From Octopus vulgaris (lineage: Eukaryota), in assembly GCA_951406725.2 (NCBI GenBank), contig OX597830.1:56916001-56980000 (forward strand): a stretch of 64,000 nt of DNA, in the 5' to 3' direction. The position numbers and the translations under genes are program-made. Below the pieces are notes generated by a model that was not told the origin of the DNA, searched no databases, and worked only from the letters and a program-made list of their open reading frames with translations. This document shows positions 25,541 through 57,616 of this stretch, piece by piece (position 1 is the stretch's first letter; each line of letters starts with the position of its first letter).

Positions 25541-26349
25541 TGTTATAAGAAAATAAGAGGGAAATCTGGCAGAGGTATCATTAGTACGCTGGGCAAAATG
25601 CTAGCAGCATTTTGCTCATCTTTACTTCTTGATTTCTAGTTCAGCTTAGGTTGGCATTTTGAGTTGATAAATTAAGTACCAGTTGAATACTGGGGTTGAT
25701 GTATCTATATACCCCTCCCCTGAAATTGCTGTCCTTGAGTCAACCTTTGAAATCAATATTTTATAAGAAAATATAATAAAGCGATTAAAAAAATATAAGT
25801 ATGTTGTGGTGGTTATCACTCATCCTCCATGAGGAAGTCATTTTAGTTTCAACACACAAAATTAGAACAAATCTCTCATTAAAAAAATAGAATTCGATAT
25901 TCAATGAAAGAATACAAGCTGCCTTTGTGCATCAGTTTTATCTACTATGTAAAGACTTTGAAGAACATCAAGATGAATTCAGTGCCAAAATCACTTGAAA
26001 TTCAAAGAGTCAAAATGTAATACATCAAACTGCTTAAGGCTGTGAAAGCCAAATACACACACACACACACACCCATATATATATATGGGGATATAATTCA
26101 AGCTGTGTTCTCATGAAGCACATCTCTCTCTCTCTCTATCTATCTATCTATTTATCTCTCCTGGTAGTCCATGAATATAATTAGGATCATCATTAGCAGA
26201 TATTATGGATTTCCCATTGAGTTTACAAACCAGTTTAAAGTTTTGTTTAATTTACATCAATCTGTTCCTTATACAATAGAGAAAGGAATCAATATCACAA
26301 AATGTAAATTCTTTCACCAATAAGATGTGTGTGATTGTTAAAATTACTC

Positions 26350-27870
26350 TTCCAGGCAATAACAGAAGAATTTAAGATGGGCCCCTCCTGGGAGCTCCTC
26401 TATGCTGATAACCTTGTTCTTACAGCCGAATCACTACCTGAACTAGAGAAGAAATTTCAGATGTGGAAGGAACGTCTAGAATCAGAGACCTTAGAGATAA
26501 TCTAGCAAAAACAACCAAAGTCTTAGTAATTAGGAAAGCAGACAAATCCTAGATCCCTTCTAGTAGATGTTCCTGCCTGGTCTGTAGGAAAAGTATAAGT
26601 AGAAACTTCATAAGATGTACCTGGTGTAAGCTATGGATACATAAGAGGTGCAGCAATATCAGAGGAAGGTTAACAGGGAAATAGTTTTGTGTGTAGTAGG
26701 TGCACAGGTACAATAAACACTAAAAATGTACAGAAAATAGATTCCATCAAATGCCAGGGTGAAAAGCTAGAAGTTGTTGATAGGTTCCATTATCTAAGTG
26801 ACCAAATCAGTAGTGGAGGTGGATGCTCTGAGTGCATAGCTACAAAAATAAGAATAGGCTGGGCTCAGTTTAGAGAGCATGTGCTATTTGATGGCAACAA
26901 AGAGAGCCTCTCCCTCAGAGTGAAAGGTAGATTGTATGATGCCTGTGTGCGAACAGTCATGCTACATGACAGTGAAACATAGACTGTAACAGCCAAGGAC
27001 ATGTGTAGGCTTGAAAGAAATGAAGCTAGTATGCTTTGCTGGACGTACAATGTCATTGTGAATGTAGGGTAGAGAGTGTCATGAGAAAAAAGTTGGGCAT
27101 AAGAGATATCAGATGTGGTGTGCAAGAGAGACAACTGCGCTAGTGTGATTATGTGATGCATTTGGATGTAGACAGCTGTGTAAATGTGCTGATTTCTAAG
27201 GATGGATTTAACCTGTGGAAGAAGTAAACCCAAGAAGACATGGGACGAGGTGGTGAAGCATGATCTTCGAATGTTGGACCTCATGGAGGCAATGACTAGT
27301 GACTAAGACCTTTGGAGATATGCTGTGCTTGAGAAGACCAGTCAAGCCAAGTGTCAAATCATAGTTGTGGCTGAGCTGGTGCCATGTAATAGGAGTTCCA
27401 TGCCAGTGGCATTCAAATAGCACATTTCGAGCACAGGGCCTCATGAGGTAATGTGGCTGATGCTGATAAAAAGCACCTTTAAAGCTTTGGGCCTCACAAA
27501 CAATCGAGACATTTGGTACTTGTACTTGTGATGGCGTTCACCCAGGGTGGGTTGAGCCGGCTTCTTCTCTGGTCCTAACGGCATCACGAACCATGGCAGC
27601 TCACACTCGACGGTTCTGTGCGAGGTCACTGGAGATAGTGAGTCATTCGTGGTTCCATCTGCGCAGACCGACCACCTGCAGACCTGACACACAACTGACA
27701 CTGGAACCAGTTGCACATTAAAGCACCCTTAATTCTCTTCGAGTGGTTGGCATTGGGAAGGGCATCCAATGGTAGAAACCATGCCAAATCAGACTAGTGT
27801 CTGGTGCAGCCCCTCAGCTCACCAACTGTCCAACCCATGCTAGCAGATGTTAAAAGATGATGTTGATGAT
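26350..27870 (+). mobile_element. Degenerate RTE copy inserted in duplication unit 1
   Basis: WELLYAD, SLRVKGRLYDACVRT; paralogous empty sites at ~32435 and ~49293. Confidence 0.92.
27512..27700 (-). mobile_element. 3' end of a different RTE family nested antisense, (CAAGTA)n tail
   Basis: Minus-strand DLAQNRRV*AAMVRDAV...AGSTHPG followed by caagtacaagta. Confidence 0.7.
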
Positions 27871-28059
27871 TAATGGTATAGCTATCTTAAGAGAGATAAA
27901 TGTAGAGAAACGATAGTTTGCTATATTAAATGCCAATCATTTGCTTTTTGTGAGCCATCTGTTATTTTTCCATCTGTATGCCATTCATAAATAATACTAG
28001 TGATCTAATGGAGTAAGATAAGATTTAGAAGAGTAGCAATTTAGTATGCTATTTAGTAC

Positions 28060-28100
28060 CTCAATTTTATGTCTTCCTGTACCAATTCCTGAACATCATC
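28060..28100 (-). CDS. Micro-exon type A (DDVQELVQEDIKL) of TRPM-like gene
   Basis: Acceptor tttatttgcag, weaker donor gtacta; 41 nt, phase 0 to 2; other two frames contain stops. Confidence 0.6.
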
Positions 28101-29133
28101 CTGCAAATAAAAGAAATGATATTGAATATGAGAAAAAAATGTTGGGGATTCAACTATTCACAATCTTATAGCATCAATTTTTGCCAACGATTATAGAAAA
28201 GGCATATTTCTTTTAAAACGTTTTTAAAACCAACATTCTTAACATCCCTTCTCTAAAACTTCTAATCTTTGGAACTGCAAAAAAAATTTCTATAGAATTT
28301 CTGAATGATCCCCTCAAGAATATAAGGGTGATTCCATGTGACATATTCATACTTTGAAACTGTAAGATCTGAGTTTCCAATGACAAGCCAAATGTATGTC
28401 TATCTCAGTTTGTTAAATTAGGGGTTTTAATTTAGATGGCTATATTTTTTAAGTCACTTTGGTGTATCAGTTAGCATGGCTAAATAATTTACTGGAGAGA
28501 TAGTGTTCTATTCCCATAAATATTCTTAGAACATTTTTTTCTGTCTTCTTGTTTATAAGATATACCATCCCTTGATTGTCTTACAACATCTGGGGAAATT
28601 AGGAACTGGCTCTACTGATATGAAAAATAGTAAGTTAGGCTCCATCTTATCTAAAATAATTTTCCACCACTAATGATATGTAAACTAGCAGCTTACTCAA
28701 CAAATTTCAAAAAAATACTAGTCTGGTTTACCAATATGATATATTGTAGCTCATTCTTCTAATACGAAAAACAGCATCCAATAATTCTAAACTGAAAACT
28801 ACTACACTGGCCATAATAGCATGACATAAAGAAGCCTGCTGTAAATGTATTGTATATAGTTGCTGGATCTACCTGTTGGAAAACTGGTAGATGGCTCCAC
28901 TAGTCTGAAGAATAATAGCTTAGTCTACAGGTATAAAAAATAGTAGCCTGTTGTACCAATATTGGAAAATATATAAATATATTTCAAAACATAATATACA
29001 GCATTCTTTTATAAAAAAAAAAAAAATTATGAAATTCTCAACAAACCATTCGTTATAGTTTATGCAAATAGAACTAATCAAAGAATTATACAAAATTAAA
29101 AATAATTACTTATCTGCTTTTCTGAACACTTAC

Positions 29134-29209
29134 CAATATAGGTATCTTTAGTGGAAAGTTTGGAATACAGTATGAGATAGTTCTTTGAAACGGTAAACTA
29201 TTCGTATTG
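29134..29209 (-). CDS. Micro-exon type B (NTNSLPFQRTISYCIPNFPLKIPIL)
   Basis: Acceptor cttatttacag, donor gtaagt; 76 nt, phase 2 to 0, open frame. Confidence 0.7.
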
Positions 29210-29824
29210 CTGTAAATAAGTAACTGAAATGATTCCTGATTAGTAAAGTGAATTTGACATGAGTGTAGAGTCTAATATTTCAGTCTTTATCATTGAAAAG
29301 AAAGTGAAAAACAGAAGAAAAGTTGCATCGTTGCTTGGAATGGAATCAAGGACATGGAAATGGAAGTAAAATTTAAGGAATTGTGTAGCAGGTGGAAAGT
29401 TATAACCAGAGAGAGTGATTCAGTCAGAGATGAAGGGTGAGAGGGAAAGAAAGAGTAAAGGAGTCTAAGAAATTAAGGCAAAAATTAGAAAGAGGCAATT
29501 TCTCAAAGGAAGTCAAGTAAAAATATACTGAAAATTCTAAGTGACAGAAAGGTGGAGAAACTATTTGTGACAGGGACATGTGACAAAGAAGAGGAATCAT
29601 ACCTTAAAACTAGATCAATTTACAGATATATAAATATTTGCAACAGTACCGTTATAACATGGGTCATTATTAAATAATTATATCAAATAATATCCATATA
29701 TATTTAGTGTTTCTTTGCAATTATGTCAGATGAGGTCTCAGCCATTGAGGATAAGAATCAAAGTGACCAGTTTTATTGTTTCTTTGTGATTCACCAAGAG
29801 CCAAAGAATTCATATGGCTATTAT

Positions 29825-30118
29825 TTCATATATGGGAAGGTGCATAGCTTGGTGGTTGGGCTATTTGCCCCATGGTCATAAGGGCTTCAGTCCAATATCT
29901 GGCAGTGCCTTTGTGCTTGAGCAAGATACTTTATTTCATGTTGCTTCAGTCCATTCAGCTGACAAAAATGAGTTGTCCCTGTATTGCAAAGGGCCAGCCT
30001 TGTCACATTCAGTGTGTCATGCTGACTCTCTGTGAGAACTGCAATAAGGGTATGCATGTCTAAGGAATGCTCAGCCACTTGGATGTTAAATTTCACAACA
30101 GAGTTGATCCATTGATTC
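29825..30118 (+). mobile_element. SINE-like element shared by duplication units (paralog 39030-39350; family fragments 23470-23640, 23960-24180)
   Basis: Shared cttg(a/g)gcaaga(t/c)actttatttc and tcagccacttg blocks at the same unit position. Confidence 0.7.
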
Positions 30119-32775
30119 ATAATTTCTTTATTCCTAACCCATAGTATAGTAATTGTTATCCAGCCATCAATCTTTTACTATTATGCAAATCAGTAATAAC
30201 TAGACACATGCAGTTAACATTTTAACAAATAACAATCAAATATTTGATAAAAAAATATAAAAACTTCAGTATATTAAGTTGTTTGGAAAATGAACAAGTC
30301 ATCAATGCTTCAAATATCAGCCCTTCCTTTTTAAGGTAAAGAAGAGAGAAATTAAGGGAAATACTGTGTGCTATTTCAGAGCATGATGGTAACAGACACA
30401 GGAAGTGTGTAGACAATACATATGGGTTTTAGTAGAAGAAAGAGAAGAACTATTATTATTGTTGTTTTCTGCATAGGTCATCCCTGATTATGCAGTCATA
30501 CAACAGACAAATAGGTTAGCAAACAACAAGGTATGAGCCAGAGATTCATCTTGCCAGTTCTACTATGTCTCCATCTGAGACCTCAGTACACATGCACACT
30601 AAGACATTCAATTATGAAATGTATGGTATGTAGCATAGTGGTCTGGAAATATTGCAACCTCTCTACTCTCTCTCCAGTGAACAATACAAAATCCTGGGGA
30701 GCAAACAGTCTATCAAGCTGCCATGTCTATGTAGTGTACAAGAAAAACACTTTGGGAATATAATTTCCCAAATCGAATCTGTTGGGCATCTCCATCGTGT
30801 TTTCAATCTCTTCCTACACAACCTTTCCTTACCTCCTTAATACACTTAGACAGCTTTATTAGCAGACACATAAATACTCACATCCTCCCAACAAATTACA
30901 GATAGTGCTGCACAAATAATCCAATCCAACATAAATTGCTAAGAAACCTGGTCCCAAAACAAGCTTTTGAGAAACACTTAGGGCTTTTCTGGGTCTGCAA
31001 GTCAGTCTTTGATAGAGTGAAGTAAATGAAGTGAAAACCTTTAACCAGGATCAAATGGTCAGTATTGGAAAGTGGTAGGTCATGGGGTCGAGTCACTAAC
31101 ACATGTAAAATTGAGACAGGTGTGAAGATGATTGGTCAACATGCTAGTGGAGGTTACAGATTTCTCCAATACCAGACTTCATCCATCAACCAAATTTTTT
31201 GTGAATACTGATTGATTTTCGTTTTAGATACACTCATCGACAGCTAGAATTAGCCATTAATTAGTTTTATCCTAATTGTTTCCTTTCTCTTTTCACCCTT
31301 CCCCCGCCACTTCTACACCTGATTAACTGTCCCTTTATAGGTATTATCCCCCACTGGAATTAACTTCTGTTTCTGTAAGTCCTTCCATCATTTGCCATCC
31401 ACCACATGTACATACACACATATTCACACTACTTGAATCTTACACTCACCCTCTCACATATACATACTGTGTAGTGACACACACCCCTGTCACTTTTTAG
31501 TCTTTCCTTATTTCATTTTCACCTATTTTTTCTTATTTCATTTGCACTCACCCTCTCACACATACATACTGTATAGGGACACACTTTTTATTCTTTCCTT
31601 ATTTCTTTTTACCTGAGTTCCACATGTACATCACCAACCCATTTCCACTCTCCTCTTCAAGAACTCACATACCTGCTACCACTTCCTGTATCCATTACTA
31701 TGATGACCATCTGAAATAAAACATGGACAATCCATTTCTCCTTTGCTTAATATTCTCTCTTTTCTCTCTTAATAGAAATAGACTTTTGCTTCAATCTTTG
31801 TTGTCTTTTCCATTTCCTCTTGGTTTTTAATTCACTGTCTTTATCTTATATTTCTCATATTTTTGTATCTTTGAATTATTTTTGTTAAGGAACACAAAGA
31901 CCTGAATTTCTCATAAACTGAATTTCATGCTTTAATTGCAGCTTACCCATAGCATCTTGGGAAGGATATGAAACTGTATTCTGTAGAATTGTTAAGTAAC
32001 AATAAAACTGTTCATTTTGATCTTCATCCCAAACTGCCACAAATCATGGGTTTGGTGTAACCTTTTGAGACTTACTCATATTTAATATTTATAAGAAAAT
32101 ATAATGGAGTGAATATAATAATATATGTTGTGTTTGGCTCTCATTCATCTTCCATGATTAAATCATTTCATATTAAACACACAAACTTTACTCAAATCTC
32201 TTGCCAGAAAATAATAGAATTCCCAAATCAGTAAATCTCTCTCTCTCTCCTTCTCTCCTCTTCTATGCACGAATATAATTAAAATTATAATTATCAGATT
32301 TCCCACTGAGTTCACAAATCAGTTTCAATTTCAGTTTAATTTGCATAAATCTGTTTCTTATATGATAAGAGAAAGAAATCAATATCATAGAATCTAAATT
32401 GTTTCACCAATAATAAAGTGTTTGATTGTTGAAATCATTAATGCTATACTTGTCTTAGAGAAATGATGGATTGCTATATTAAATGCCAACCAAATTTTGA
32501 ATTATTTGAGCATTCTGTTGATTTCTGTCTTTCTGATTTTGTAAATAATGCCAGTGATAGAATTGAGTAAGATTTGGAAGTGTATTTCCAACATATTATG
32601 AGAAAAGACTTATATAGAAATTCGATAGTAAACTGATTTTAAGAGAAGTTTTTGTTTAGCATTTACTGGGATAATCTCAGCTGAGTGAAGTTTTTGAATT
32701 CACTATACACCATAGCTGAAATTCTAACATATATATACATATATATTATCAAATTTTACTAGTTCCTTGCATTAC

Positions 32776-32807
32776 CTCTCTTCTTCTCTGCTGTATTTAA
32801 CAATATT
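32776..32807 (-). CDS. Micro-exon type A (NIVKYSREEE)
   Basis: Acceptor cttttgttttcag, donor gtaatgc; 32 nt, phase 0 to 2. Confidence 0.7.
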
Positions 32808-33758
32808 CTGAAAACAAAAGAAATGATATATATAATAGAACTATGCAACAATGTGTCAGCACAAAAAAATAGGGGTTTAAATGATAATGATGATGTTTGA
32901 TAGTATTTATCATATTAATTGTTTTATACGAAGCACATGTCAACAATTTTATGGGAAGAAAAATACAAAGCTATGATAACTTCTTATTTCTCTTCAAACA
33001 GAAATTGAAACTAAGAATTGAAACTGAAAATTAAAACCAAGTGAATGTCTCTGATCACTTGGTATTTATATTCCAATGTAAGAAGCTTAGGAAGGTCCAA
33101 CTAGTGACTATATCCTTCAAAATCTTTCTTCCTCTGTATATGAAGTCAGTACCATTCAACTTACATATTATACTCTCTAATTATTATTTTTCTTTCTTTG
33201 TCAATAAATAGAAACCAAATCAGACATTGAAGCTAAACACAGTCCTTTAACTCATTGGATGCTATTGAATTGTCAAGGAAAATGGAAGTTACTTAATGAT
33301 GATGATGATGATGTGATGGAGACAAACACCAATATGGTAGACTTGAATAATTGTTGAGATATTTCTCTCCCTCCATGAAACTAATGGTAGTCAGGATAAC
33401 CCAAATGTAAAGAATATTTATCCACCAATATGATGTTGAGAGCACTCATTCACCCTGATTGATACTAATGCATGCAGCATGTATGTATGTATGTAATTGT
33501 TTTAAGAATAAAACAATTAAAAATTAAAACTAAAAATACAAGACATAAATAGAATAAAAATTAAAATTAAGGTATGAGCTGTATTGTTAATGAATATATA
33601 TTCCATTTGAGAATCTAAGGATGTGATTAAGTAATTAAGACGATAAACTCAAAGTTAATTGAAGGTAAATGTAGATAGATACTTAAATGAAAATGTTTAA
33701 ATGTATAGTACCAATGGATAGTATTAATTGTACCAATGTGCAATGATATGGAGACGTA

Positions 33759-34749
33759 TTGGGTCACCCCATAAATAATGCAGTTTTATCAATTGACTGA
33801 ACTAAAAGTCGGAGGTGGGTGGGATAAACTACCTGCATCAACTTGCTATAAAAGCAGGTAGTAATTTTACCTTATACATACATATCTTTAGTGCAAGTTT
33901 TGAAGAGTGTAATTCGCTTTTAACAGTTATTTGTTCAAACCTATAATGGAAGTAACAAAGGAGCATCTTTGGTGTATTTTACTTTATGTGTTCAATAAAG
34001 ACAACAATGCAATGGAAAGTGTGAGGAATATTTATGCAGAGTATGATATGGAGATCAGACAATAAACATAATCCAGAGTCAACAGTGGTTCCAGAAATTC
34101 TGAGGACGTCCTGCAAACCCTAGTAGAATGAAATCACATTATAACTGTTAAGGAACCTGCAGAGAAGCCTGGATTTAGCAGGGAAGCTTGGATTCAACCA
34201 TTCATTGACACCTGTGTGCCATTGGAAAAGTCAGAAAATTGGGTCAATGAGTTCCTCATAAACTTTCCAAATGTTAAACCCAAACCAAATTATAACAAAG
34301 GAGATCTACTATGAGCAACTTGAGTGGCTTATGTTAGTACTAGAAGAAAAACGACCATCTTTGGTTTCTAGATGAAAGGTGTTCTTCCATGAGGATAATT
34401 CTCAGCTACATACAGTGGGGATAGCATTCTGAAAGCTGAACAGTTTGAATGGGAAACGATGTCCCACCCACCATTGCTCCATCTTATTATCATTTATTCC
34501 ACAGTCTTCAAAATCATTTGGACGGAAAAAATATGAATTCTGTAGATGAGGCTGGAAAAGTACTAGAGAAGTATTTTTCATCATGGACAAATGAATTTTG
34601 GAAGAGGGATCTTACAATTCTACTAGTTAGATGGAAGAGCATTGTAGAAAATGAAGGAGAGTATATTTTAGATAAAAAAGAACTTTGTTCATCTTAATTT
34701 TGAAAGATAAAAGAAGTATAAAAACTGCATTATTTATGGGATGACCCAA
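33759..34749 (+). mobile_element. Internally deleted mariner element
   Basis: TIRs ttgggtcaccccataaataatgcagtttt / aaaactgcattatttatgggatgacccaa, flanked by TA; APSYYHLFHSLQNHL, RWKSIVENEGEY. Confidence 0.92.
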
Positions 34750-36314
34750 TACATACACATGTGTGTATGCATGTGTGAATTTGTGTGCATGCATGCATGA
34801 GATCAACGAAATCTGTAAAATGTTTTATTCTTGGAGAAAGAAATAACGTTTTGAATACAATTCAGTTTGATATTTAATTTCATATATATATATATATATA
34901 TATAAATATATATTTTCATGTGTGTGTGGGTGAAACTAAAAATCTAAATTTAATTTACTTTGAAAATTTGCAGTTTTACTTCGATTAAAACACCAACGAG
35001 TCTTTAACTGACATTCCATTGATTGTTTTAGACTTCTCTTCTCAGCGTAACAAAAGACAAAGGAGTCCATAAAATTTTTACAGCATCCACACATCCGAAC
35101 TTCAGATTGTAAAGATAATTTATTCTTCTCCATCAACTCGTTTTCAGTAAAAAGAAGTTCATTGTGAGTAGGACGGAGGTAAGATTAGTTGAAAGCCCCC
35201 CCCCCCTCTACACACACAAATAATTTATTATCAATTTTATTTATTGACAATAACTGTCTACGTAGAAACAAACTTTGCCAACTCCAGAAAGAGCAACTGT
35301 GGAATCACTTGAATTCATGAGTGAATTTATCCTACTCCAACCTGTGCCAATGCCAATGAGATTCAACAAAAACACGTTAGTAGCAACACTAACACTCTCC
35401 GTAATTATAATGTTACTATCAGTCCGAATATGCTTGATGCACAGTTGAACTGGGAAACAGGCTACTAACTGCATTTTGTCATGCAGCACCACCTACCTAG
35501 ACTGTGAGATGCTAGCATTTTGGTGTAGTTATCCCCTCTTTGGTCACAGATACGAGGCAGATGATGCGATGAACTGATACTCTTACACTTTTCCAGTCAC
35601 CATACAGTGACTGGTAGGGCTATACAGCATGTTCAATTATTAACAGTCCCCAAACCATTTTTGCTATTAATACAAATATACCATTGCATTACTGTTATTT
35701 TGCAAACATAAGATGGTATGTTTTTTCCTTTTCAGGATTTCAGTTAGCTACAAACATTTGCTAATTTTAAAATAAAAAAACAAGCCCTATGTAGTGGAGT
35801 TTATCACAGAAAGCACACAAGCACACCTTATTAAATGGATTTTATTATTAATTTCAAAAGGGAAAAGATGTGGTGAATTGTCATGCATGAAATTGTCAGT
35901 GTTGAACTGTCATGTGAAGAATTGTTGGGTGCCATTGAAAATACTAGTTGGTCTAGTACTATAAACAGTATACATCCATACTAAAATAGAAACTATTACA
36001 CTTGTTATAAAACATGAAAGCCTGCTGTAAATATATGAAATATAGTTTTTATATCTACCAATAAGAAATAGCATAGACAGTTCTATCTTGTGGAAAATAG
36101 TAGATTGTTCTACCAGTGTAAAATTAGTAGCCTGTTGTACCAATGTGCGAAAATATATAAAAATATTCATAAACAGAACATACAACATTCCTTTTAGGCA
36201 AATCCATTGATGAAATTCTCAACAAACCATTTGTTACAATCTATGCAAAAAAGAACTCATCTATAAAATATAAAATTTATAAAGAATTACTGTTCTTCTT
36301 TTCTGAGAACTTAC

Positions 36315-36366
36315 CTTATATCCATATTTATATCCTGAATGACCAGATGAGATAATATTCGTAAAT
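36315..36366 (-). CDS. Micro-exon type B (FTNIISSGHSGYKYGYK)
   Basis: Acceptor ctgattttacag, donor gtaagt; 52 nt, phase 2 to 0. Confidence 0.7.
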
Positions 36367-36543
36367 CTGTAAAATCAGTAAATTAGAAAATTCCAGATTG
36401 GTAAAGTGAATCTGACATAAGTCTAGAGTTTCAAATTTCAGTCTTTATCTTTTGACTGGGAGTGAAGAATAGAAGAAAAGTTGTGTTTTGGCATGAAATG
36501 GAAATAGAATGAAAGTTTAAGGAATTATGTGACAGGTAAAAAG

Positions 36544-36575
<32 letters not shown>

Positions 36576-36577
<2 letters not shown>

Positions 36578-36934
36578 TAGCAGTATCGCCCGGCGTTGCT
36601 CGGGTTTGTAAGGGAAATAACTATAAAGCATTTTTAGAGAGTTATAGCCAAAAAATGGGAAAAAAATGATGGTAAATTTTTTTTTTTAGTTAAAAAGGTC
36701 GAGTTGCGTCTGTGGTTTGTGTTTGTGATTCTCGACCCCATGTCGAATTTATCGATTTTTTTCAGAACTGGGGGAACTTTTCAAAATTTTCGCTGCGTTA
36801 GTTTTGAATTATGACATTGGGCTATGTGTGTGTCAAGTTTCATCAGAATCGGTTGAAAGCCGTGGTCAGTGTGAGGGTACAACCTAACAGACACACAGAA
36901 ACACACACAGACAAACTGCCGTTTATATATAGAG

Positions 36935-36935
<1 letters not shown>
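36576..36935 (+). mobile_element. Helentron/DINE-1-like non-autonomous element
   Basis: actagcagtatcgcccggcgttgctcggg start, aagtttcatcagaatcgg core, tttatatatagagat end, set in (TA)n. Confidence 0.65.
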
Positions 36936-36983
<48 letters not shown>

Positions 36984-37199
36984 CTGGGCCAGAGTAGTAT
37001 GGTGAAAAGTAAACAAGGAGTAAAGGAAACTAAAAAAATAAGACAGAAATTAGAAAGAGGAAATTTCTCAAAGAAAGGCAAATAGAAACATGTTGAAAAT
37101 TGTAAGAGAAGCTAAAAAGATGGAGAAATCTCTATGTAACAGAGGCAAGTAACAAAGAATAGGAATCATATGTTAAAAATAGATCTATTCACAGATATA

Positions 37200-38405
37200 T
37201 TAGGTTGTCTCACATGAAATATTGTATTTTAACTGGGTTTCTTATGAGTCATCTATAAATGGATTTTGAATGAGTTTCTATGTACATGCTTGTGTTTACT
37301 CTTACTCTTTTTCTTTCTAGACAATTCTATTATTCAAAATTGCTACCCACAGCTCTTATGACAATGTTGACAACAGAATAATATCAAGTGATATTCTTGT
37401 GTGAATACAAGTTGGGTCACTCTACCACCGAAGCTCTACAAAATATCAAGTGCACTTTTGGTAATGAATCTGTTGACATTAGAACTGTTCAGAAATGGTT
37501 CCAAAGATTTTGTTCAGGAAATGAAAGCATTAAAAATAAATCAAGAGGGAGACTAAAATCTGATATCTGGCATGATGAATTGAATGCTTTGATTAAATGG
37601 AATCTGGGAACAACAGTCCAGAAAATTAGATCAGAGCTCCAGACATCTGCAACTGCTTCTTGACACTTGAAGAAAATTGGAAAAGTAAAAAAGATGGATA
37701 GGTTTGTTCTGTGTTCCATGTTGATTTCTCGGTTGGAAAGAAAACCACTTTTGAATTGACTCATTATGTATGATGAGAAATGGAAACTCTTTGATAATAA
37801 TAGCAGGTGGACAGGACAGTGGTTAGATGCAGGTGAGTCACCAAAACACTACTCAAAACCACCACTGCATCCTAAAAAGTTGGTCACTGTATGGTCAACA
37901 AAGAGGTAGTTCATTTTTCATTTTTGCAACAAAGAGAAACTTTAACAACAACAACCTATTGTCAGGAAATTTTATGCATGGAAAATTAAAAAAGAAGCAA
38001 CCTAAATTAGTGAATAGTGATGGCCCAATTTTGCTTCATGATAATGCATGACCTCACACTTCTCATGCTACAGTCCACAAGTTGCAATGCCTGAATTATG
38101 AAATTTTGGCACATCCTCCTTATTCTTCTGATATCTCTCCTACTGGTTATCACATATTTAAACACTCCAAGCTTGCTATATGCAATAAAACATTCTTAAA
38201 TAAAGAAGAGGTAACTGAAGCATCTCAAAAATTTATCAGTGATAATTTATCAGATGATAAATATATGCCTTAGAGGGAACGTTGGATGAAGGGCATAAAT
38301 TAATAACGATCATATTTTGATTAAATAAATAAATATTCTAAAACTTAAAAAACAAATTTTAATGTTTCCTTTTTCAAATGTGACATTTCATGTGAGACAA
38401 CCTCA
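37200..38405 (+). mobile_element. Degenerate mariner transposon
   Basis: TIRs aggttgtctcacatgaaat / atttcatgtgagacaacct; TA TSD shown by empty paralogous site ~29625; DEKW, LHDNA, HPPYSSDISP. Confidence 0.93.
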
Positions 38406-38479
38406 TATAAATATTTACAACAGTACCAATATAACATGGGTTATTATTAAATAAATATATCAAATAATATCCATATATT

Positions 38480-38893
38480 CTTTTATTCGTTATCTTGTTT
38501 CAATCATCTGCCTGTGGCTATGCTGGAGCACTGCCTTTTAGTCAAGCAAATCACCCCCCCCACTCCAGGACTTGTTCCTTGTAAGCCTAGTACTTATTCT
38601 ATTGGTCTCTTTTTGCTGAACTGCTAAGTTACGGGGACGGAAACACACCAGCATCACATGTCAAGTGATGTTGCTGGGGGTGGGGGGAACAAACACAGAC
38701 ACACACACACATATATATACATATATACGACGAGCTTCTTTCAGTTTCTGTCTACCAAATTCACTCACAAAGCTTTGGTCGGCCCAAGACTATAGTAGAA
38801 GACACTTGCTCATGGTGTCACACAATGGGACTGAACCTGGAACCATGTAGTTGGCAAGCAAGCTACATACCACACAGCCACTCCTGCGCCTAT
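38480..38893. mobile_element. SINE-like element (family also 40715-40830 and in opposite orientation 50130-50515)
   Basis: Absent from the paralogous site at ~29700; shared tttc(t/c)gtctaccaaat(t/c)cactcacaa. Confidence 0.75.
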
Positions 38894-40137
38894 ATATTTA
38901 GTGTTTCTTTGCAATTATGTCAGATGAGGTCTCAGCCATTTAGGATAAGAATCAAAGTGACTAGTTTTACTGTTTTTTTGCAATTCATCAAAATTCATAG
39001 AATCCATTTGGCTATCATCGCATATATGTGAAGATGTGTGGCTTAGTGGTTGGGGTATTTGGCCCACGATCATAAGGTCTTCAGTCTGATATCTAACAGT
39101 GCACTGTGTGCTTGGGCAAGACACTTTATTTCGTGTTGCTTCAGTCAATGCAGCTGGAAAAAATGAGTTGTCCCCGTATTGCAAAAGGCCAGCCTTATGA
39201 CATTCAGTGTGTCATGCTGAATCTCCGTGAGAACTGCAACAAAGGTACGTGTGTCTAAGGAATGCTCAGCCACTTGCAGTGTTAATTTCCTGAGCAAGCT
39301 GATCCATTGATCGGATCAACTGGAACCCAAATCATTGTAACTGACAGGGTACCAATATATATATTACATATATTTATTTATTCCTAACCCATAGTGTAGT
39401 ATCATCTAGTCATCAACCTTTTACTGTTATGCAAATCAGTTATTACTAGATGCAAGTATGTTTACATTTTAACAAATAACAAACATTTGATAAAAAATAT
39501 AATGAAGTCAGTATATTAAGTTAATTTGAAAGGGAATAAATCATCAATGCTTCAAGTATCAGCCCTTCTATTTAGGTAAAGAAGAGAGAAATTAAAGAAA
39601 ATACTGTTATTTCAGGCTAAGATGGTAACAGACACAGGAAGTGGGTTGCTGGTATATATGAATTTTAGTAGAAGGTAGTGGAGAATTATTATTGTTCATA
39701 GTAGAGAAAGAAATCAGTATCACAAAAATCTAACTTCTTTCACCAATAAAAAAACATGTCTGATTTTTAAGATCAATAAATCTATAGCTGTGTTAAGACA
39801 GGTAAGCGTAGAGAAATGATGGATTGTTATCTTAAATGCCAACCAAATTTTGCTTTTCTGACCTCTCTGCTTTATTTTAATTCTACTATTCAAAAATAAT
39901 ACCTGTGTCCTAATGGGATCAGGTCTGAAAGTTGAGCAGTTTATTGCATTTCCGACATGAAAAAATGTTTTAAGGAAATTAACAATCAACTGATCATAAG
40001 AGTAATCTCCGCTGTTCGTTTCTTTTTATTTTCTTTGCATTATCGACATCCCCAAAAGTTTTTTTGTTTAGTATTTACTGGGATAATCTGAGCTAAGCAA
40101 AGTTCTTAAATTCACTATACACCATAGTTGAAATCAT

Positions 40138-40169
<32 letters not shown>

Positions 40170-40210
40170 CTTATTTATTATCAAATATAAGGATATATTT
40201 ATTGCATTAC

Positions 40211-40242
40211 ATTTTTGTGAATAGTTGGTCTATTTCAGGTTC
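40211..40242 (-). CDS. Micro-exon type A (EPEIDQLFTK)
   Basis: Acceptor tctcttattttcag, donor gtaatgc; 32 nt, phase 0 to 2. Confidence 0.7.
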
Positions 40243-40825
40243 CTGAAAATAAGAGAAAGAATAGCAAACGTTAGAAGGAATGATGGAGTTCAAACTTCTG
40301 ACATTAATGAAATAATACATAGATTAAATTTTTACAACAAATTATGCAGAGAAACATAATTAAATACAAAGTGTACATGTTTAAGACATAAATGTAGCCA
40401 AGATTATCTGGTGGAGATAATCCAATAGCTATTAACAGAGATATACGATTTCTTTTTTCCTATTTACAGTTTTTAGTGTGGTACACTGGTTTTGATATGA
40501 GATTTGAATGGATGAAATCGTCTGGATCAAAATAGTTTTCCATGATGATAACAGTATTTTATTTAATCATTTTAAACATTTGTGTAAGACTTGACAGAAA
40601 ATTGCACCTCCAGTCGTGGTAGATATTTTACAATCAATATTTTAAACAACCTCACAGAAAACCAGCCATTCACCTAATCACTAATCAGTCTGGTGGGCAC
40701 ATAAGCCAGATCGACAATTCTTTGTAAGCCTAGTACCTATTCTATTGGTTCTTTTTGCTGAACCGCTAACTTACAGGGACATAAACACACCAACATCGGT
40801 TATGCAATGGTAGGGTACAAACACA

Positions 40826-40880
<55 letters not shown>

Positions 40881-41505
40881 GCATGTATTTATCTACAGAT
40901 TATGATATTCTCTTCTCATTGGATCGTAGGAAAACATTAAGTGATAGGAAAGAGTAATTTTGATATTTCAAATGACCACCACAAACATTCTATGAAGTAA
41001 CATAAAATTATCAAAACAGTTTTCAGAAACTTTGCTTTCAAAGACCTGTATAATGTAAAAACTAGCAACTTATTCAAATATCAAAAATACTAGCCTGGTC
41101 TAACAATATGGTATACAGTAGCTGGTTCTTCTAATATTATAAATAGTATCCAGCCATATTAAAATGGAAACTAATACACTGACCATAATAATATTTAAAA
41201 ACATAGAAGACTGCTGTAAATATATGAAATATAGTTGTTGGATCTACCAATAGGAGATAACGCAAACAGTTCTACTTATTGGAAAATAGTAGTTAGGTCT
41301 TCCCGTCTGAAGAATCATAGCTTGGGCTACCAGTATCAGAAATAGTAGCTTGTACCAAGATGAGAAAATATATAAAAATATTCATAAACAGGATATACAA
41401 AATTCCTTTTATACAAATGCATTGATGAAATTCTCAACAAAAATTTCATCATAATTTATACAAACAGAACTAATTAAGCATACATAAAAGTTTTAAAAGA
41501 CTTAC

Positions 41506-41533
41506 ATTTTCTAGCCATGAATCGTCAGCTGAT
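41506..41533 (-). CDS. Micro-exon type B (SADDSWLEN)
   Basis: Acceptor ttctgattttgcag, donor gtaagt; 28 nt, phase 2 to 0. Confidence 0.7.
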
Positions 41534-41617
41534 CTGCAAAATCAGAAAATGAGAAAATTCCAGATTAGTAAAATGAGCCTGTCGTAATGAGTGAAGCATC
41601 TTATAGTTCAGGCTTTA

Positions 41618-43360
41618 TGAAATGTAATGTGTCTTGAATGGCTCAACAATGCAGAGTGGACTGTAATAACTGTGAAATAATTTAATTATTTATAGTCTAA
41701 TATAATATTTAGGAATATAAAAATTCCTTCTTCAGATATTGCTTGGAATTAATCGAGTCACTGTTATAAACGGTTTTCTAACGGTTACTGATTTTTTTTC
41801 TTTTTTTGGAAGTGTCTCTGCAGTGGTCTCATGAAGCTCCTTCTGAAATTCCTCATGAGGAGTGCTTGAGGGTGGCCATGTCTCAAGCTTATGTGTGTTG
41901 GCATATCCACAATGTTGCTTCTAAGTTATGTATTATACGTGCATTTTTTTATACATAAGCATGTTACTATTGTGCGTGCAGGATGTCAATGTAAAATAAT
42001 ATAGTGATTGCTAATTTCCAACCTGTTGTTAATTTGGGGCCCTAATCTGTCTGTGAGGATAGCTTCTTTAATTCTGAAATTTCTGTCATTGGCTTCAATT
42101 GTGATTGTTATGTTTTTGTCGGTGTTCTGGCATCTGTCCAGATGTTTTCTGAAGGAGGAGGCTCACGTGTTTAAATATTCTTTGATGCGAATGTGTGACA
42201 GTCTGGTTGTGCCACCCACTTAAAAATTGTTGCATTTGTTACATTGGATTCTATACACAGCATTTACTCGTTGGCATAAATCTGTGTCGCGGATAGTTTG
42301 TGGTTGGGTTCTTGGTTTGTTGTGGGGGGGTCTAGTTGGTACGTTGGAAATTTGCTGAGTGTGTTGTTGCTGTTTTTCTTTATTACCAATTTCCATTTGA
42401 GTTGATCGGCTGTTCAGGAAAAGGTAGGCTTCCAGGTTGAGTAAGATTTTCTCGTTCGGCTGTTGGCTCAAGATAAATTTAGGGCCCAGACTGATGAGTT
42501 CTAGCTCTTCATGGGAGAGTGACCCACTCAAGTGTGTGACTAGGGGTTTCATTGTTGATGGTATGCTGGTGCCCCTGATGTTAGGGTTATCTTGATCAGT
42601 GGATGTCCCGTTCATCTGTGTCAGTGTAATAGACTGAGTTGTGGCAGTATTTGGTACAAAGCTACAAGAATTTAAGTTTGAGGCATTTCTTCTCTTGGTC
42701 AACACAGTGATGGAAGCATTGGTCAATAGCTGTGGAGGTTTTTCGGTGTGTAGATTACACATTCGCACCAAAGAACATCTAAACGTGAGTCTCCTCCTTG
42801 AGAAAACTTCCAGACAAAAGCATAACAGTCACAATTGAAGCCAATGACAGAAATTTAGGAAATTTAAGAATTAAAGAAGCTATCCTCATAGACAGACTAG
42901 GGGCCTCAAATTAACAACAGATTGGAAATTAACAATCACTATTATTTAACTACATTGACATCCTGCACATACAATGGTAACATGCTTATGTATAAAAAAA
43001 TGCATGTATAATACATAACTTAGAAGCAGCGCTACGGAAATGCCAACACACATAAACTCAAGACAGGGCTGCCCTTGTGCACTTCTCAAAAGAAATTTTG
43101 GAAGGGGCTTCGTGAGACCACTACAGACACACTTCCGAAAAAAATTCAGTAACCGTTGGAAAACCGATTATAACAGTGACTCGATTAATTCCAAGCAATA
43201 TCTGAAGAATGAATTTTTATATTCCGAAATATTATATTAGACTATGAATAATTAAATTATTTAACAGCTATTATTGTCCACTCTGGCCTGTTGTGTCATT
43301 CAAGACACATTACATTTCAAAAACAATATACAATGCTTCCAGCAAACAACAGTAACCATT
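41618..43360 (-). mobile_element. Internally deleted Penelope-like element with inverted pLTR and ~11-bp TSD
   Basis: Arms 41618-~42190 and ~42760-43320 inverted; LSHEELELISLGPKF N-terminus fused to VYRIQC..C..VGGT..RIKE GIY-YIG; TSD ttcag(g/t)cttta at 41607-41617 and 43361-43371. Confidence 0.85.
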
Positions 43361-43709
43361 TTCAGTCTTTACCTTTAAACTTAGCATGAGGAATAGACAA
43401 AAGGTGTTTCAGCCAGAGATGAAAGGTGAGAGGCGAAGAAAGAGATAAAGGAAGAGAAGAAATTCAGACAGAAGTTGGGAAGAGGTAACTGGCAAAAAGA
43501 AATTATACCATAAAATAGATCAGTTCACACATGCGTATGCACTCACACACATGCACACAAGTATATATATCCTGCGTTTCAAATTATTAATGGCGTAACA
43601 TTTAAGTTTTATTCAAAAGTGGCGATCGTTCGTTACGAGAACAAGATAGCCTATATGGATGGATGGATATATATATAAATATATATATATAAACAGATAG
43701 ACAGATAGA

Positions 43710-44925: not shown

Positions 44926-45239
44926 GATATACCCGGCCTTACTCGGGATTAAAATAGTTTATTATTGTTTTGCTTGTTTCGGTATTATAACCCGATTTCA
45001 TTTGGGTCTATGCGGGTCACATTTTAAAAGATGAGGAATTTTGTCCCAGAGGCCATGCCTTTCAATTGAGCAAACTCAAAGGTGCCATGCAAACTCACTA
45101 GCACTTTTAACATAGGTGTGCATATTTTCAGCTCAGTCAGACCACATATGCACACATTACATATATATATATACATACGCATTAAATATGTACATATATA
45201 CTCATTATATATACATGTATACACACAACTTTCAATAGG

Positions 45240-48200
45240 AACATGCTCAGCAATGGCAGTATAAATGTACATGGCTTGGGGTCACCTTGGAAACAAGGCT
45301 ACCTGTTAAACGACATCAAGTCACAAAATCTACAGACCAGATTCTATCAGCGAAACCAGACTCCACAGCCTGCGGGCACTCCAGCACATGTTCGGCGAAC
45401 ATTTCAACATTTTTCTCCATGTCTGCCGAGAATGGGCAGAGGTGGCACCACGGTGCTTCTTCAGAAGTGTCTGGACCTCAAAGTAAGAGCAATTTTCCTA
45501 GACCCGGAGGGTAGGCTGGTTGTTTGGATGTCAATGGCAGCAATGGGTGTGCTTTTTGACCGATTACAGTTTATGCACCATTCTTAACAGGCCGGCCAGA
45601 TTTCTTTTGACGTCTAGAGGTTTTCCTGGGTACGTCTCAACCTTTACTTTTACTGAGGGATTGGAACACTACCCTGGACACGCATCTAGACTATGTGGAG
45701 ATGCAAATGCTTCAAAGACCCGCTCAGATGTTTTCAACTGTTTGGGAGGTACCGACTGGACCACCCGAATGTGCCGATGTGGACATGGAACAACCACATT
45801 GGGTCATCCAGATTGTACTTAGAATATTCTGTAGGACAGTGGATAAAGATAGTGTAGGTTGTCCACAATTCCATATAGTCAGCTACACAGACCACAAACT
45901 TGTGACTTGTACACTTGACTTAGTTAAGACATATAGGGAGGGTCCCAGTTACTGGAAGCTGAACATGTCGTTCACAGCACGCCAGGCTTACAGGGACTGG
46001 ATTAGCACATTAGTTAAGAGGGCATTGACTGGTGCCATCATCAACAACAGATGGTGGTATGCCCTAAAGAAAGCAATTAAAGCAAAATCAGTGAGGTACA
46101 ATAAGGCCCTAGCATTAGACTGAAATAGAATAGAGGGAGAGTTAGTTAAGAAAATAGAAGAGGCACTTAGATCTGGCATCACATCCCATGTACTGGCAGT
46201 GAGGTTGGCCCCCGATAAACACTTCAACACCAAACACGAAGGATACATTGTCAGAGCTAGGATGCATGCTTTGAGGAATAAAGGAGTTGGAGCCACCCAA
46301 GAGGCCCAAGTGGCGGAGGTGCAACGAGGCAACAGAGCCACCATTAGGTCACTTACAGATGAAGAGGGGCGTGAATTACTTGAGCCTGAAAAGATGTGTG
46401 AGGCCTTTCAACAACACTTTGCCCGACTGTTCAGGACAACTGGTGGGTCAGAATGCAGAGTGTTCTGTAGTGCCTACCTTCGTGGCCTGCCACGACTCTC
46501 AGCAAGAGAGGCAGAGTGTTGTAAAAGACCCATCACAGCTGCAGATGTATGGGATGTGATGGCAAGCTGCGCGAGAGACAAGTCACCAGGCTTGGATGGT
46601 CTGCCCTATGAACTTTATTGCCATATGCCAGACTTGTTTGGAGGCATCTTGGTAGCTGTCTACTGCAACTGGCAGCAAAACGGGAATATCCCAGTCTTTG
46701 TAAAGCAAGGAGTGGTGATCCAAACAAGGGAAACGTAGATAACTTCAGGTCCATCACTCTGCTCAATGCATATTTGAAAATTTTGGCCAAGAGGTTGGCG
46801 CCTGTCATCAAGAAACTAGTCGACAAGGCACAAACGTGCGCCATGCTGGTATCCATGACAACCTCCATCTTATTTCTTTATTGCCCACAAGGGGCTAAAC
46901 ATAGAGAGGACAAACAAGAGGGGTCAACCTCCATCTGATGCACTACATCATAGACAGGGTAGTTAAGGAACCTGGCATGGGTGGAGTGATGATCAATTTA
47001 GATCAATCAAAAGATTTTGATAGGGTAGACCATCACTACTTGGAGGCTGTCCTCAAAGTGGCTGGTTTCAGTCCCGTCTTCTGTGGTTGGATCGCTGCCT
47101 TATACAGTGGCATCTGCTCGGTATTTCACATAAATGGTCATCTATCCGGATCATTTAACATCATGCGTTTGGTTCATCAAGGTAGCCCTCTCTCATTGTT
47201 GCTGTATATTTTGACTCTTCAGCCACTACCGTGGAAGCTGGTAACGCCGAGGGGCATGCTATGAGAGCTGGGATGTGAGAAGAGCGTGTCTGCATATGTG
47301 GACGACGTCACCATCATAATGTCAAGCCACAAGGACATCGACCTGGTCGGAGAGACACTAAACGCACATGAAGCGGTAATGGGAGCAAAACTTAATCGAG
47401 AAAAGTCAGTGGGCTTGCGGCTCGGCACCTGGAGAAGCAAGCCCATGCCATCCAACAGTGTCTCCATCGTTGGACGCTTGACCAACAGACCGGTTCAATT
47501 TCTCAGGGTCTGATTCAGTCCAGATTTCCAAATGGAGAAGAACTGGGGTGAAATAATGACTAGAGTGGCCTAAAAGGTCGCATACATCACATCCGTCATC
47601 GATTACCATCTGACCATCGTGCCTTGTCCCAACCCTACCATCACCAAACTGGAATGCATACTCTTCCATTTTTTGTGGAAGGGAAGCGTTCCAATGGTTA
47701 GGCAGTCCATTTGCTGTCAACACCCGCTAAATGGAGGCCTAGGCATGAGGTGGTTGATGATGCGCTGAGACTGTGTCATCTCCGGCACTTCATAGACGAT
47801 GGTGAACAGGTGTGGTCGCCGTTTGTGTGGTGTGCTTTCCTGCAGCTCATCTCCTTGGCTGAACTGCAGTTGTGGAATAAACAGAGACCGAGGCTAGGCG
47901 AATGGGACTGCGAGTGTCGCGTTGCTGTCAAGCAACTCTGCCGTCCGGGACCAAACTTGTGTGACTTCATTACAACAAAGGCATTCTATAGAGGATTAGT
48001 GGAGGGAGATGCGATGACATTCTCGGGCAGAATCTGGGCGTTGATGAGGAACACCTGACCTGCCTGTTCAGAACACCTTTCGGGCCGGGACCTATGGACT
48101 ATCACCAAAGATCCCTGGCCTGGCAGTGCTATCGAAAAGCATTACCTGTTCGGGATAAGCTCTACAGGCATGGTTCGAGAGACACTGGACCGACTTGCCC

Positions 48201-48930
48201 GAGATGCAGTCAGAGCGATGAAACCATTCTGCACGCACTCATGCAGTCTTTAACCATTTTGGACCTGTGGGCTTATGCCTAACGGCTGTTTTCATGTGTG
48301 AGACGAGTCCGCCTGTCGGCCGAGTCTATCTTGAAAGCTGCTCCACCATCTTCCCTCAACTTGGAAGGCAAGACAGTCTTCATCATACTGGTGGCCATGG
48401 TGAAAGAAAGTGTGTGGTAGACTCGAGCAAAAGGATTAGAGACAAACACTTACCTCTCTGGCCAATCGCTCATCAACTTTTTCAAGTACCACTTGAAAAG
48501 GAAGGTGAGAATGGAGAGGCAGGTTTTGTCTTGTGAAAGTTTCAAAAAAGGGTGGGTGAACGTAGCAAAGATGGTGCATGTGAGTGACGAAACCACTTTG
48601 AGCATGATCCTGTAATGGATTGAGAGAGAGAGAGAGAGAGCACTTTGCTCTCATGTGTTTATTCCCTCCCTGCCTGAGGATACCGTAGTCTTTTCCATAG
48701 GCTTTTCTTTCCATGGATAAACATAATCTTGCTTTTCAGATTTTTAAAATTCTTCTGTGATACACGATCACTTTTGACCGTCTTTATCCCCCACCCATCC
48801 CTTTTGATCAGAATTTTACATTTTTTTCTCAATTTTTCCCTTTTTCTTTTTCATTTTCAAAAAGAAAAGCTTTACATTTGTATTTGTCCCCTCTCTGTTC
48901 AGCCCTGTGTGGCCAATAAAGAAAGTTATC
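45240..48930 (+). mobile_element. Degenerate L1/Tx1-group LINE ORF2 (APE, RT, zinc knuckle)
   Basis: SINVHGL, YTDHK, YWKLN, KSPGLDGLPYE, NFRSITLLN, LDQSKDFDRVDH, QGSPLS, AYVDDVT, CPRC..ETILH; aataaa ~48915. Confidence 0.92.
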
Positions 48931-49678
48931 TATCTATCTGTCTGTCTTTCTGTCTGTCTGTCTGCTGCTGCCTGCCTGTCTGTATGTATGTCTGTCAGTC
49001 GATCAATCAATCTATCTATTTTCTCTCTCTTTCTCTGACTCTATCTCTCTCTTCCTCCCTCTTTCTCCCTCCATCCTTCTTTCATGTCCTCACTCTCTCT
49101 GCCCTTCTCACACTGTTTATGAATATGATTAAAATCATTATTAGTAGAAGCTATGAATTTCCCACAGAGTTCACAAACCAGTTCTAACTTCTGTTAATTT
49201 GCATAAGTCTTTTCTTCATATAATAGAGAAAGAAATCAATATCACAGAATCTAATTTCTTTCACCAATAAAATTGTGTGTGATTGTTAAAATTGTTAATG
49301 CTATAGCTGTGTTAAGAGAAATAAGTGTAGAGAGATGATGGATATTAAATGCTAACCAAATTTTGGATTTTAAAACATTTTATTAATTTCTTTCTGCTGT
49401 TTGCAAATAGTACCAGTGATCTAATCGGGTAGAATTTGGAAGAGTAGCAATTTAGTATATTTCAAACATATATGAAATGAGGTATATAGAAATCAATAAA
49501 AAAATATTCTTTGTTATCTGCCTTACTTATTGTTTTTTGGGTGCTACTGTCTACTAAAGAAATTTTTGTCTACTAATTACTGGGATAATTGCAGCTTACA
49601 ATACACCATGACTGAAACCCTGCTATATATATATGTACTTATATATTATCGAATTTAGGGACATATATCATGCATTAC

Positions 49679-49706
49679 CTGTCTTCCTCCGAGCTGTCCT
49701 TATCGT
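49679..49706 (-). CDS. Micro-exon type A (..DKDSSEED), 5' part lost in assembly gap
   Basis: Donor gtaatgc at the homologous position of the duplication unit; open frame ending in phase 2; abuts the N run. Confidence 0.6.
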
Positions 49707-54473: not shown

Positions 54474-54534
54474 AAAAATACCCTGTTGATGATGTTGAAA
54501 TTTCAATGAAGGAGTCTTGGATCGAGGTTAGAAA

Positions 54535-57556: not shown

Positions 57557-57616
<60 letters not shown>

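Follow-up and report, generated by a model that had tools for sequence, protein, structure and literature searches.

Micro-exons between tandem SLOG modules of an octopus TRPM channel gene and their divergence relative to flanking introns

Why should short exons in a repeated array resemble one another less than the introns around them? The question is raised by a 64,000-nucleotide (nt) stretch of the Octopus vulgaris genome (NCBI GenBank assembly GCA_951406725.2, contig OX597830.1, positions 56,916,001 to 56,980,000 of the forward strand; hereafter the window, numbered from its first letter). A preliminary description had noted four units there whose introns aligned by eye while exons at homologous positions shared little peptide similarity, and had proposed that selection to keep the frame was combined with diversifying or relaxed selection on the peptide. 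The gene in question, which that description had not identified, is by its domain and protein matches a fast-evolving, minus-strand octopus TRPM channel, probably of the TRPM-beta (TRPM2-like) type. On balance, the units are probably truncated tandem copies of the exon pair that opens each SLOG module of this channel. Exons do diverge more than introns here, but the excess is small except in one exon (A3) and is partly a product of using alignable intron blocks only.

Seven micro-exons in a channel gene

Four exons in the window are channel exons. Among the proteins cited, P0001, P0009 and P0010 are from O. vulgaris, P0002, P0004, P0005 and P0015 from O. bimaculoides, and P0008 and P0016 from O. 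sinensis; fractions in the lists of exons are matching residues.

22156-22237, minus strand: DAFG exon B0, 82 nt, MHR1 start (P0001 22/27; BLAST E 3.7e-7 and 5.2e-5)
8821-8998, minus strand: SLOG/MHR1-2 exon S1 (Pfam LSDAT_euk E 8.8e-6)
3137-3279, minus strand: SLOG exon S2 (tblastn E 5e-32; P0001 42/48)
548-722, minus strand: SLOG exon S3 (Pfam LSDAT_euk E 2.2e-12; P0001 57/58)

The Pfam family matched by S1 and S3 (LSDAT_euk, PF18139) is the SLOG/MHR1-2 region of TRPM channels and is also found in P0001, P0005, P0008 and P0009. S1 is 90% identical to the O. vulgaris TRPM-like protein P0001 (CAI9735657) and 76% identical to P0002 (XP_052830019). The same chain, P0001, goes on to match TRPM2 (PF25508, MHR3/4) and Ion_trans (PF00520), whose exons lie outside the window and are seen in the O. 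vulgaris model only. In a tree whose references comprised no alpha, gamma or TRPS members, all modules group with octopus TRPM-like proteins (100/98), and the octopus module clade has long branches. The best structural relative is entry 6co7 (E 1e-104), which we take to be a Nematostella-type TRPM-like 2, with TRPM2 next. In the available part of PMC13143021, Table S1 lists the O. bimaculoides orthologue XP_052830018 as TRPM-beta.

Upstream of the DAFG exon lie seven short exons, named A or B according to their phases.

49679-49706, minus strand: micro-exon A4, 3' 28 nt, its 5' end inside an N gap (9/9 to P0001 and O. sinensis P0008)
41506-41533, minus strand: micro-exon B3, 28 nt (9/9 to P0001, 5/9 to O. 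bimaculoides P0005)
40211-40242, minus strand: micro-exon A3, 32 nt, the outlier among A exons (11/11 to P0001, 7/11 to P0005)
36315-36366, minus strand: micro-exon B2, 52 nt (16/17 to P0001, 15/17 to P0005)
32776-32807, minus strand: micro-exon A2, 32 nt (11/11 to P0001, 9/11 to P0005)
29134-29209, minus strand: micro-exon B1, 76 nt (22/25 to P0001, 20/25 to P0005)
28060-28100, minus strand: exon A1, 41 nt, the normal opening exon of the last SLOG module (14/14 to P0001)

These exons appear in the order A4, B3, A3, B2, A2, B1, A1 in P0001 (92/96 residues) and in P0005 (73/94), followed in both by the DAFG exon and then three SLOG exons. GT stands at every donor and AG at all six visible acceptors, A exons run from phase 0 to phase 2 and B exons from 2 to 0, and the 11 exons of the window (seven micro-exons and four channel exons) form a 288-codon frame with no stop. 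Aligned with TRPM2, A1 falls on the conserved W-I-x-x-x-I motif of the TRPM N-terminus. Judged from annotation in two species and from conservation, all seven micro-exons are real coding pieces. We rely on these lines because read joints gave no direct view of splicing: of 1190 joints, 15 were listed (four runs, 22001-42000, swamped by repeats) and none fell at an exon border, so that splicing is neither shown nor excluded by them. A weak hint comes from run X16, guessed to be RNA, which has contig depth at two positions of the DAFG exon and none at three nearby intron positions.

Phase and splice sites are kept across units, as the preliminary description had claimed, and where it had named frame-disrupting indels as evidence to the contrary, the orthologue in O. 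bimaculoides has the same seven exons annotated in the same order and frame. The span that it gave the array, 25760-49706, proved too narrow: the last partner exon is the DAFG exon, and database proteins carry more A-like peptides upstream (P0006, P0010 and P0011), which suggests, at the level of gene models, at least five or six A/B units in the gene. A 100-N gap at 49707-49806 interrupts A4, and tblastn found no upstream spacer, module or other TRPM exons in 49807-64000, which leaves room for a long intron or for a mis-join.

Transcript models vary in this region. The O. bimaculoides isoforms P0002 and P0005 differ by a 13-residue in-frame cassette further upstream in the spacer, and isoform P0004 starts just ahead of B2. 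In O. vulgaris the A4-B3 pair occurs at least three times, and B3 continues in frame into A3, A2 (P0009) or A1 (P0010); this copy variation among gene models may reflect deletion, skipping or prediction.

Origin of the units

Proteins of this octopus cluster consist of tandem SLOG/MHR1-3 modules: four in P0015 and P0016, three in P0008, P0009 and P0018, two in P0001, P0022 and P0026. Our survey collected 130 proteins (120 of 964 matches listed, with lengths of 705-2246), 124 of them SLOG-bearing, and among the matches listed the eight with more than one SLOG module are all from Octopus. P0001 spans module 4, a spacer, module 5 and Ion_trans; since P0015 and P0016 (modules 1-4) overlap it from module 4, five modules are implied for the gene. 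Orthologous modules 1-4 are 77-84% identical in the O. bimaculoides comparison. Some cluster members are chimeric, P0017 having a module-1 start on a channel, and module 3 of P0008 grouping with module 4.

Every module opens with an A-type peptide followed by a DAFG-type peptide. A1, which opens module 5, matches module-start peptides (p 0.001-0.003, three of five targets); A4 resembles the shorter A exon of module 2 (p 0.006, one of five); and B1 is weakly like the DAFG exon of module 2 (p 0.014, one of six, lost on correction), with no BLASTP match between B1 and P0008. Blocks 3' of the A donors align in all six pairs (z 11.8-41.6 relative to shuffles), as do blocks 3' of the B1-B3 donors (z 38.9-55.1 over ~400 nt, 3/3 pairs) and blocks 5' of the B1-B3 acceptors (z 11.8-23.0, 3/3 pairs). 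The DAFG exon is followed by an intron homologous to those after B1-B3 (z 3.8-7.3, 3/3 pairs), and the A1 intron, without the first ~200 nt common to A2-A4, is 74-85% identical to theirs. Across the aligned blocks identity is 71-87% and star-like, without near-identical tracts. The main blocks, given without strand, are:

29697-30460: longest homologous intron block, 5' of B1/B2, partner 38891-39696 (BLAST 78% over 822 columns; 640/748 ungapped)
28673-29115: intron block 3' of B donors; partners 35944-36290 and 41050-41512, and a weaker one at 22005-22159
32236-32799: intron block 3' of A donors; partners 49090-49702, 39703-40210, and 26139-26345 with 27865-28047

The earlier observation that unit introns align over hundreds of base pairs (bp) is therefore true of selected blocks (z 11.8-55) but not of the introns as a whole: neither the 400 nt 5' of the A acceptors (z 0.8-2.9, 3/3 pairs) nor the remaining B-to-A intron sequence (z -0.6 to 2.6, 6/6 pairs) aligns above shuffles.

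From these module repeats, phases and flanks we would reconstruct the following history, in which the DAFG origin of B1-B3 is itself conjectural. An A exon (phase 0-2) and a DAFG exon (phase 2-0) would have been duplicated in tandem along with their introns, the SLOG exons being left out. Because an A+B pair is phase-symmetric, it could be added, lost or skipped in frame, and because the copies lack the following SLOG exons, their structural role would be lost. Substitutions, donor shifts and small indels that compensated one another would then have let them drift until they formed an acidic, probably flexible spacer separating the last two SLOG/MHR1-3 modules, with selection holding splice sites, phase and open frame and little else. 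An intron-generating transposon that split one old exon was also considered; it was rejected, given two alternating intron types with fixed phases and flanks of A3 and B1 that reads cover at single-copy depth.

Compensating indels and donor shifts are seen in the B exons, whose lengths of 28, 52 and 76 nt had been described as steps of exactly 24 nt. The lengths are right. However, a 24-nt repeat unit is ruled out, since the gaps in the B1-B2 alignment are of 18, 5 and 1 nt and the B3 donor is shifted: it lines up with the donor of the DAFG exon and with a spare GT 24 nt 3' of the B1 and B2 donors. As B lengths are all forced to 1 modulo 3, the equal steps are a coincidence. Over their last 20 nt B1 and B2 agree at 4/20 positions in register and at 10-11/20 with a one-base shift, so that their 3' ends are homologous DNA in different frames, and peptide likeness was lost with few substitutions. 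Two stretches lie between the present donors and the ancestral donor position:

36291-36314, minus strand: 24 nt running from the B2 donor to a further GT at the site of the ancestral donor, open in frame (11/24 matches with the 3'-terminal 24 nt of B0, 19/24 with the corresponding B1 stretch)
29110-29133, minus strand: 24 nt running from the B1 donor to the ancestral donor site, ending in an in-frame stop (10/24 to the last 24 nt of B0)

The first of these is probably the intronised 3' end of a DAFG-type exon.

Might the micro-exons nevertheless be decaying pseudo-exons, stitched together by gene predictors, with the upstream modules being separate genes? The O. sinensis model P0008 does end right after A3, reading into the intron, and none of the database proteins examined holds all five modules together. 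But the same seven exons are annotated in the same order and frame in two species 34 million years apart, and P0001 runs from module 4 through the spacer and module 5 to Ion_trans. We consider this explanation very improbable.

Exon and intron divergence

Each exon and its flank were aligned with one aligner and compared by a one-sided Fisher test per pair. For the three A2-A4 pairs, exon identity was 15/27, 18/28 and 16/29 (55-64%) against 298/413, 323/392 and 287/361 (72-82%) for introns (p 0.056, 0.022 and 0.0043). For the B1-B3 pairs it was 16/21, 11/16 and 33/52 (63-76%) against 75-78% (p 0.51, 0.29 and 0.047), so that only B1-B2 reaches p 0.047; in the three pairs with B0 the difference was not significant (p 0.17-0.39). 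Exon identity equal to or above that of introns, named beforehand as evidence against faster exon divergence, is found in none of the six A2-A4 and B1-B3 pairs. The claim itself holds for the A pairs, mainly by way of A3, but is weak for the B pairs, and since intron identity was taken from blocks picked for alignability, the contrast is biased in its favour.

The exon deficit is also one of several results that weigh against the derivation of the units from module-opening pairs, because neutral drift predicts equal exon and intron identity. In-frame ungapped identity is 11/32 for A2-A3, 9/28 for A3-A4 and 18/28 for A2-A4, and a neutral simulation that avoids stops and runs at the intron distance without indels yields P 0.0007, 0.0007 and 0.013, respectively; A3 requires about three times the intron rate or more. 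In addition, the intron before B0 cannot be aligned with the introns before B1-B3 (z -0.1 to 0.9), the peptides of A2, A3, B2 and B3 are similar to no module start, and the B0 exon body is not significantly similar to those of B1, B2 and B3 (p 0.14-0.74); with the adjoining 24 nt included, the comparison with B0 gives p 0.03 for B1 and p 0.22 for B2.

One way to accommodate A3 is to suppose that some exons, A3 above all, are not paralogues: if the duplicated block started at the A donor, unrelated upstream sequence would have become the exon body. The sequence 5' of A acceptors is indeed unalignable, and A3 is no more similar to A1, A2 and A4 than shuffled sequence is (p 0.28-0.38). We nonetheless think this improbable: A2 and A3 are both 32 nt long, in equal phase and with identical eight donor bases, and the other A exons are similar above shuffles (A1-A2 p 0.02; A1-A4 and A2-A4 p 0.002). 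Among B pairs only B2-B3 is significant in this respect (p 0.004; B1-B2 0.07, B1-B3 0.90).

A second scenario is episodic positive selection, under which, soon after duplication and before 34 million years ago, the copies were pushed towards new peptides at more than the neutral rate and then settled to the gene-wide one. It would account for the lower exon identity in all six pairs and for the simulation results (P 0.0007-0.013), and replacement changes are clustered in the SLOG exons of the same gene. The proportion of replacement differences (pN) exceeds that of synonymous differences (pS; both after Nei-Gojobori) in four of eight in-frame comparisons, for example in the 5' part of B1-B2 (0.35 vs 0.13; B2-B3 has 0.41 for both). 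For the six A pairs pN/pS is 0.53/0.38, 0.67/0.67, 0.45/0.26, 0.72/0.45, 0.25/0.77 and 0.67/0.65, the fifth being A2-A4, where pS far exceeds pN. Yet pS too lies far above the intron distance: pooled over the A pairs, which are not independent and have 4-6 synonymous sites each, pN is 0.55 and pS 0.53 against an intron distance of 0.13-0.29, with multi-hit codons inflating pS. Such a pattern, drawn from 8-10 codons per comparison, is not the signature of positive selection alone, and between species the micro-exons show no excess. We therefore regard this scenario as possible but doubtful.

The same pN/pS picture would be expected if the exons were older than the similarity of their introns, that is, if ectopic gene conversion or unequal crossing-over had made the introns alike and tracts spanning exons had been purged. 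Beyond the equal divergence of synonymous and non-synonymous sites, several features fit: the intron of A1, which is an ordinary module exon, is 74-85% identical to those of A2-A4; the cluster does recombine, as its chimeric members P0017 and P0008 attest; and the closest pair switches between neighbouring blocks (A3-A2 at 85%, then A4-A2 at 84%). These between-block differences are small, however, and the star-like 71-87% identity without near-identical tracts would mean that conversion ended long ago in all units at once, which makes this explanation unlikely in our view.

What, then, of selection on the derivation from module-opening pairs? Between species, in the comparison with O. bimaculoides, micro-exons are identical at 73/94 residues and adjacent channel exons at 155/192 (Fisher p 0.54 and 0.16). 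A canonical paralogue of the cluster retains 1127/1193, so the gene as a whole is far faster (Fisher p 2e-7). O. bimaculoides already has the exons in remodelled form, and since its lineage separated ~34 million years ago according to the available part of bioRxiv 10.1101/2023.05.16.540928, the remodelling is older. That selection keeps the frame is borne out by the conserved phases and by the persistence of the exons at this level of identity. Of the two modes proposed for the peptide, relaxed selection is supported by the rate of the gene and by the different frames of the B1 and B2 3' ends, whereas pS close to pN and the lack of an interspecies excess leave diversifying selection on the micro-exons unproven; near-neutral evolution of the peptide would be our expectation.

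The window copy has changed in its own right. Relative to O. vulgaris and O. bimaculoides, twelve derived amino acid changes and one codon deletion are clustered in the DAFG exon and the first two SLOG exons (22156-22237, 8821-8998 and 3137-3279), with introns differing by ~1%. On its branch, 12/192 residues are derived in channel exons and 1/96 in micro-exons; the 18 differences from P0001, which may not be the exact orthologue of the window copy, are more than the 4-5 that a divergence of 0.9-1.2% would predict (P <= 1e-5; 0.06 at the local 2.7%). Against the window, the contigs from two DNA runs show 54/6173 and 63/5190 differing letters, or ~1% (eight pieces listed for each); the accessible part of the same preprint gives 1.22% heterozygosity for O. 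vulgaris and a split from O. sinensis ~2.5 million years ago, and we assign the animal to the O. vulgaris complex. Recent positive selection, paralogy or decay are possible causes of the clustering, and recent acceleration, if real, lies in the SLOG exons rather than in the micro-exons.

The window is also rich in repeats. An inverted repeat of 596 bp (15403-15998 and 16273-16867; 99% identity, 275-bp spacer) is probably a recent non-autonomous DNA transposon. Another inverted pair (41614-42196 and 42757-43323, 83% identity) is inserted 80 nt 5' of the B3 acceptor, and a 202-codon frame between its arms has no Pfam match. One family of long interspersed nuclear elements (LINE) has four copies of 75-84% identity (11245-12786, 3765-4976, 19867-20988 and 26345-27353); a 513-codon frame at 11245 matches RVT_1 and then, weakly, a PHD/C1-like domain, and one copy splits the intron after A1. 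A complex tandem array at 12768-15232 (periods 326-346, 200, 90 and 62 nt, up to 99% identity) derives from the LINE end region. By eye, unit introns hold what we take to be decayed mariner-like, gypsy-gag-like and LINE-like inserts (33750-34750, 37200-38400, 24300-25300 and 45260-48620); two frames in the last of these regions have no Pfam match.

The spacer, the channel and related systems

The spacer that joins module 4 to the pore-bearing module 5 in P0001 is ~140-155 residues long and 24-25% Asp/Glu. AlphaFold2 on a three-row alignment gives a mean pLDDT of 41 and a pTM of 0.27, which fits disorder and is uninformative at such depth. A HMMER search of 1.84 billion representatives returned six proteins, five from Octopus and one Biomphalaria repeat protein (E 3e-4), which we reject as a chance match.

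In human TRPM2, the ADP-ribose pocket of MHR1/2 includes Y295, R302 and R358 (available part of PMC6759353). Module 5 has S, R and Q at the equivalent positions, the substitutions differ in the remaining modules, and none of the modules keeps the TGGAK loop unaltered or has the Cys-rich segment. P0001 has no NUDT9H Pfam match, and PF25969, present in most TRPM2 matches and presumably corresponding to NUDT9H, is absent from octopus cluster proteins. We infer that the channel would not be gated by ADP-ribose in the manner of TRPM2 and would combine divergent pockets, arranged as an array, with a flexible spacer open to in-frame length change. In sum, the gene shares SLOG, MHR3/4 and pore domains with TRPM-beta/TRPM2-like channels, but differs in its multiple SLOG/MHR1-3 modules, the deletion of the Cys-rich N-terminal segment, the pocket changes of each module, the lack of a NUDT9H-type tail and the micro-exon spacer.

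Elsewhere, MEG exons (exons of schistosome micro-exon genes) are mostly symmetric (3n) and individually skippable. Exon lengths here are 28, 32, 52, 32, 76 and 41 nt, and only A+B pairs are divisible by 3. As far as the accessible parts of PMC4350168 and PMC10526429 go, MEGs resemble the octopus gene in their runs of short exons amid long transposon-rich introns and in rapid peptide change; they encode secreted host-interface proteins with elevated dN/dS, according to the part of PMC4350168 at hand, whereas the octopus sequence is intracellular and mostly not micro-exon-encoded, micro-exons supplying 96 of the more than 900 residues of the channel. Snake three-finger toxins, with accelerated exon evolution or ASSET (accelerated switching of exon segments so that targeting changes), likewise combine similar introns with unrelated exon segments at matching positions, as in A3, although in their case the comparison is between paralogous secreted-toxin genes and not between repeats within one channel gene (PMC2474615, available part). 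Lower exon than intron identity, the hallmark of such evolution, is clear for A exons and weak for B exons. The pattern as such is already known from toxin and parasite genes and is modest here.

That phase-symmetric exon modules are shuffled through tandem duplication is well established. In the octopus gene, phase-0 borders similarly allow in-frame multiplication of A+B pairs and of whole SLOG modules, but the copies here would have lost the original fold and turned into spacer. Channels of the TRPM family are described with one melastatin region in the available part of PMC13143021, and a 2026 cephalopod survey reports one TRPM-beta per octopus species in the part of PMC13402157 that was accessible. 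Tandem melastatin modules or a spacer are not described in the available parts of these two sources or of bioRxiv 2024.05.23.594666, PMC12919962, PMC6759353, PMC4350168, PMC2474615 and bioRxiv 2023.05.16.540928; more broadly, no description of a multi-module gene or of such intron homogenisation was found in the literature searched, which included few subscription papers and is not proof of absence from print.

The multi-SLOG channel is more interesting than the contrast between exons and introns. If one transcript carries all five modules, the architecture is an unusual one, and it would offer a case in which conserved channel exons were recycled as spacer in the past tens of millions of years. 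Tentatively, one may picture a single TRPM-beta subunit of ~2,700-3,000 residues (summed over overlapping models), with five tandem SLOG/MHR1-3 clamshells whose pockets are remodelled and a skippable spacer, made from dead module starts, that would set the coupling of the outer four to the pore module; diversifying selection might then act on it as a multi-ligand sensor or decoy array, for instance for nucleotide-type stress, infection or chemical signals.

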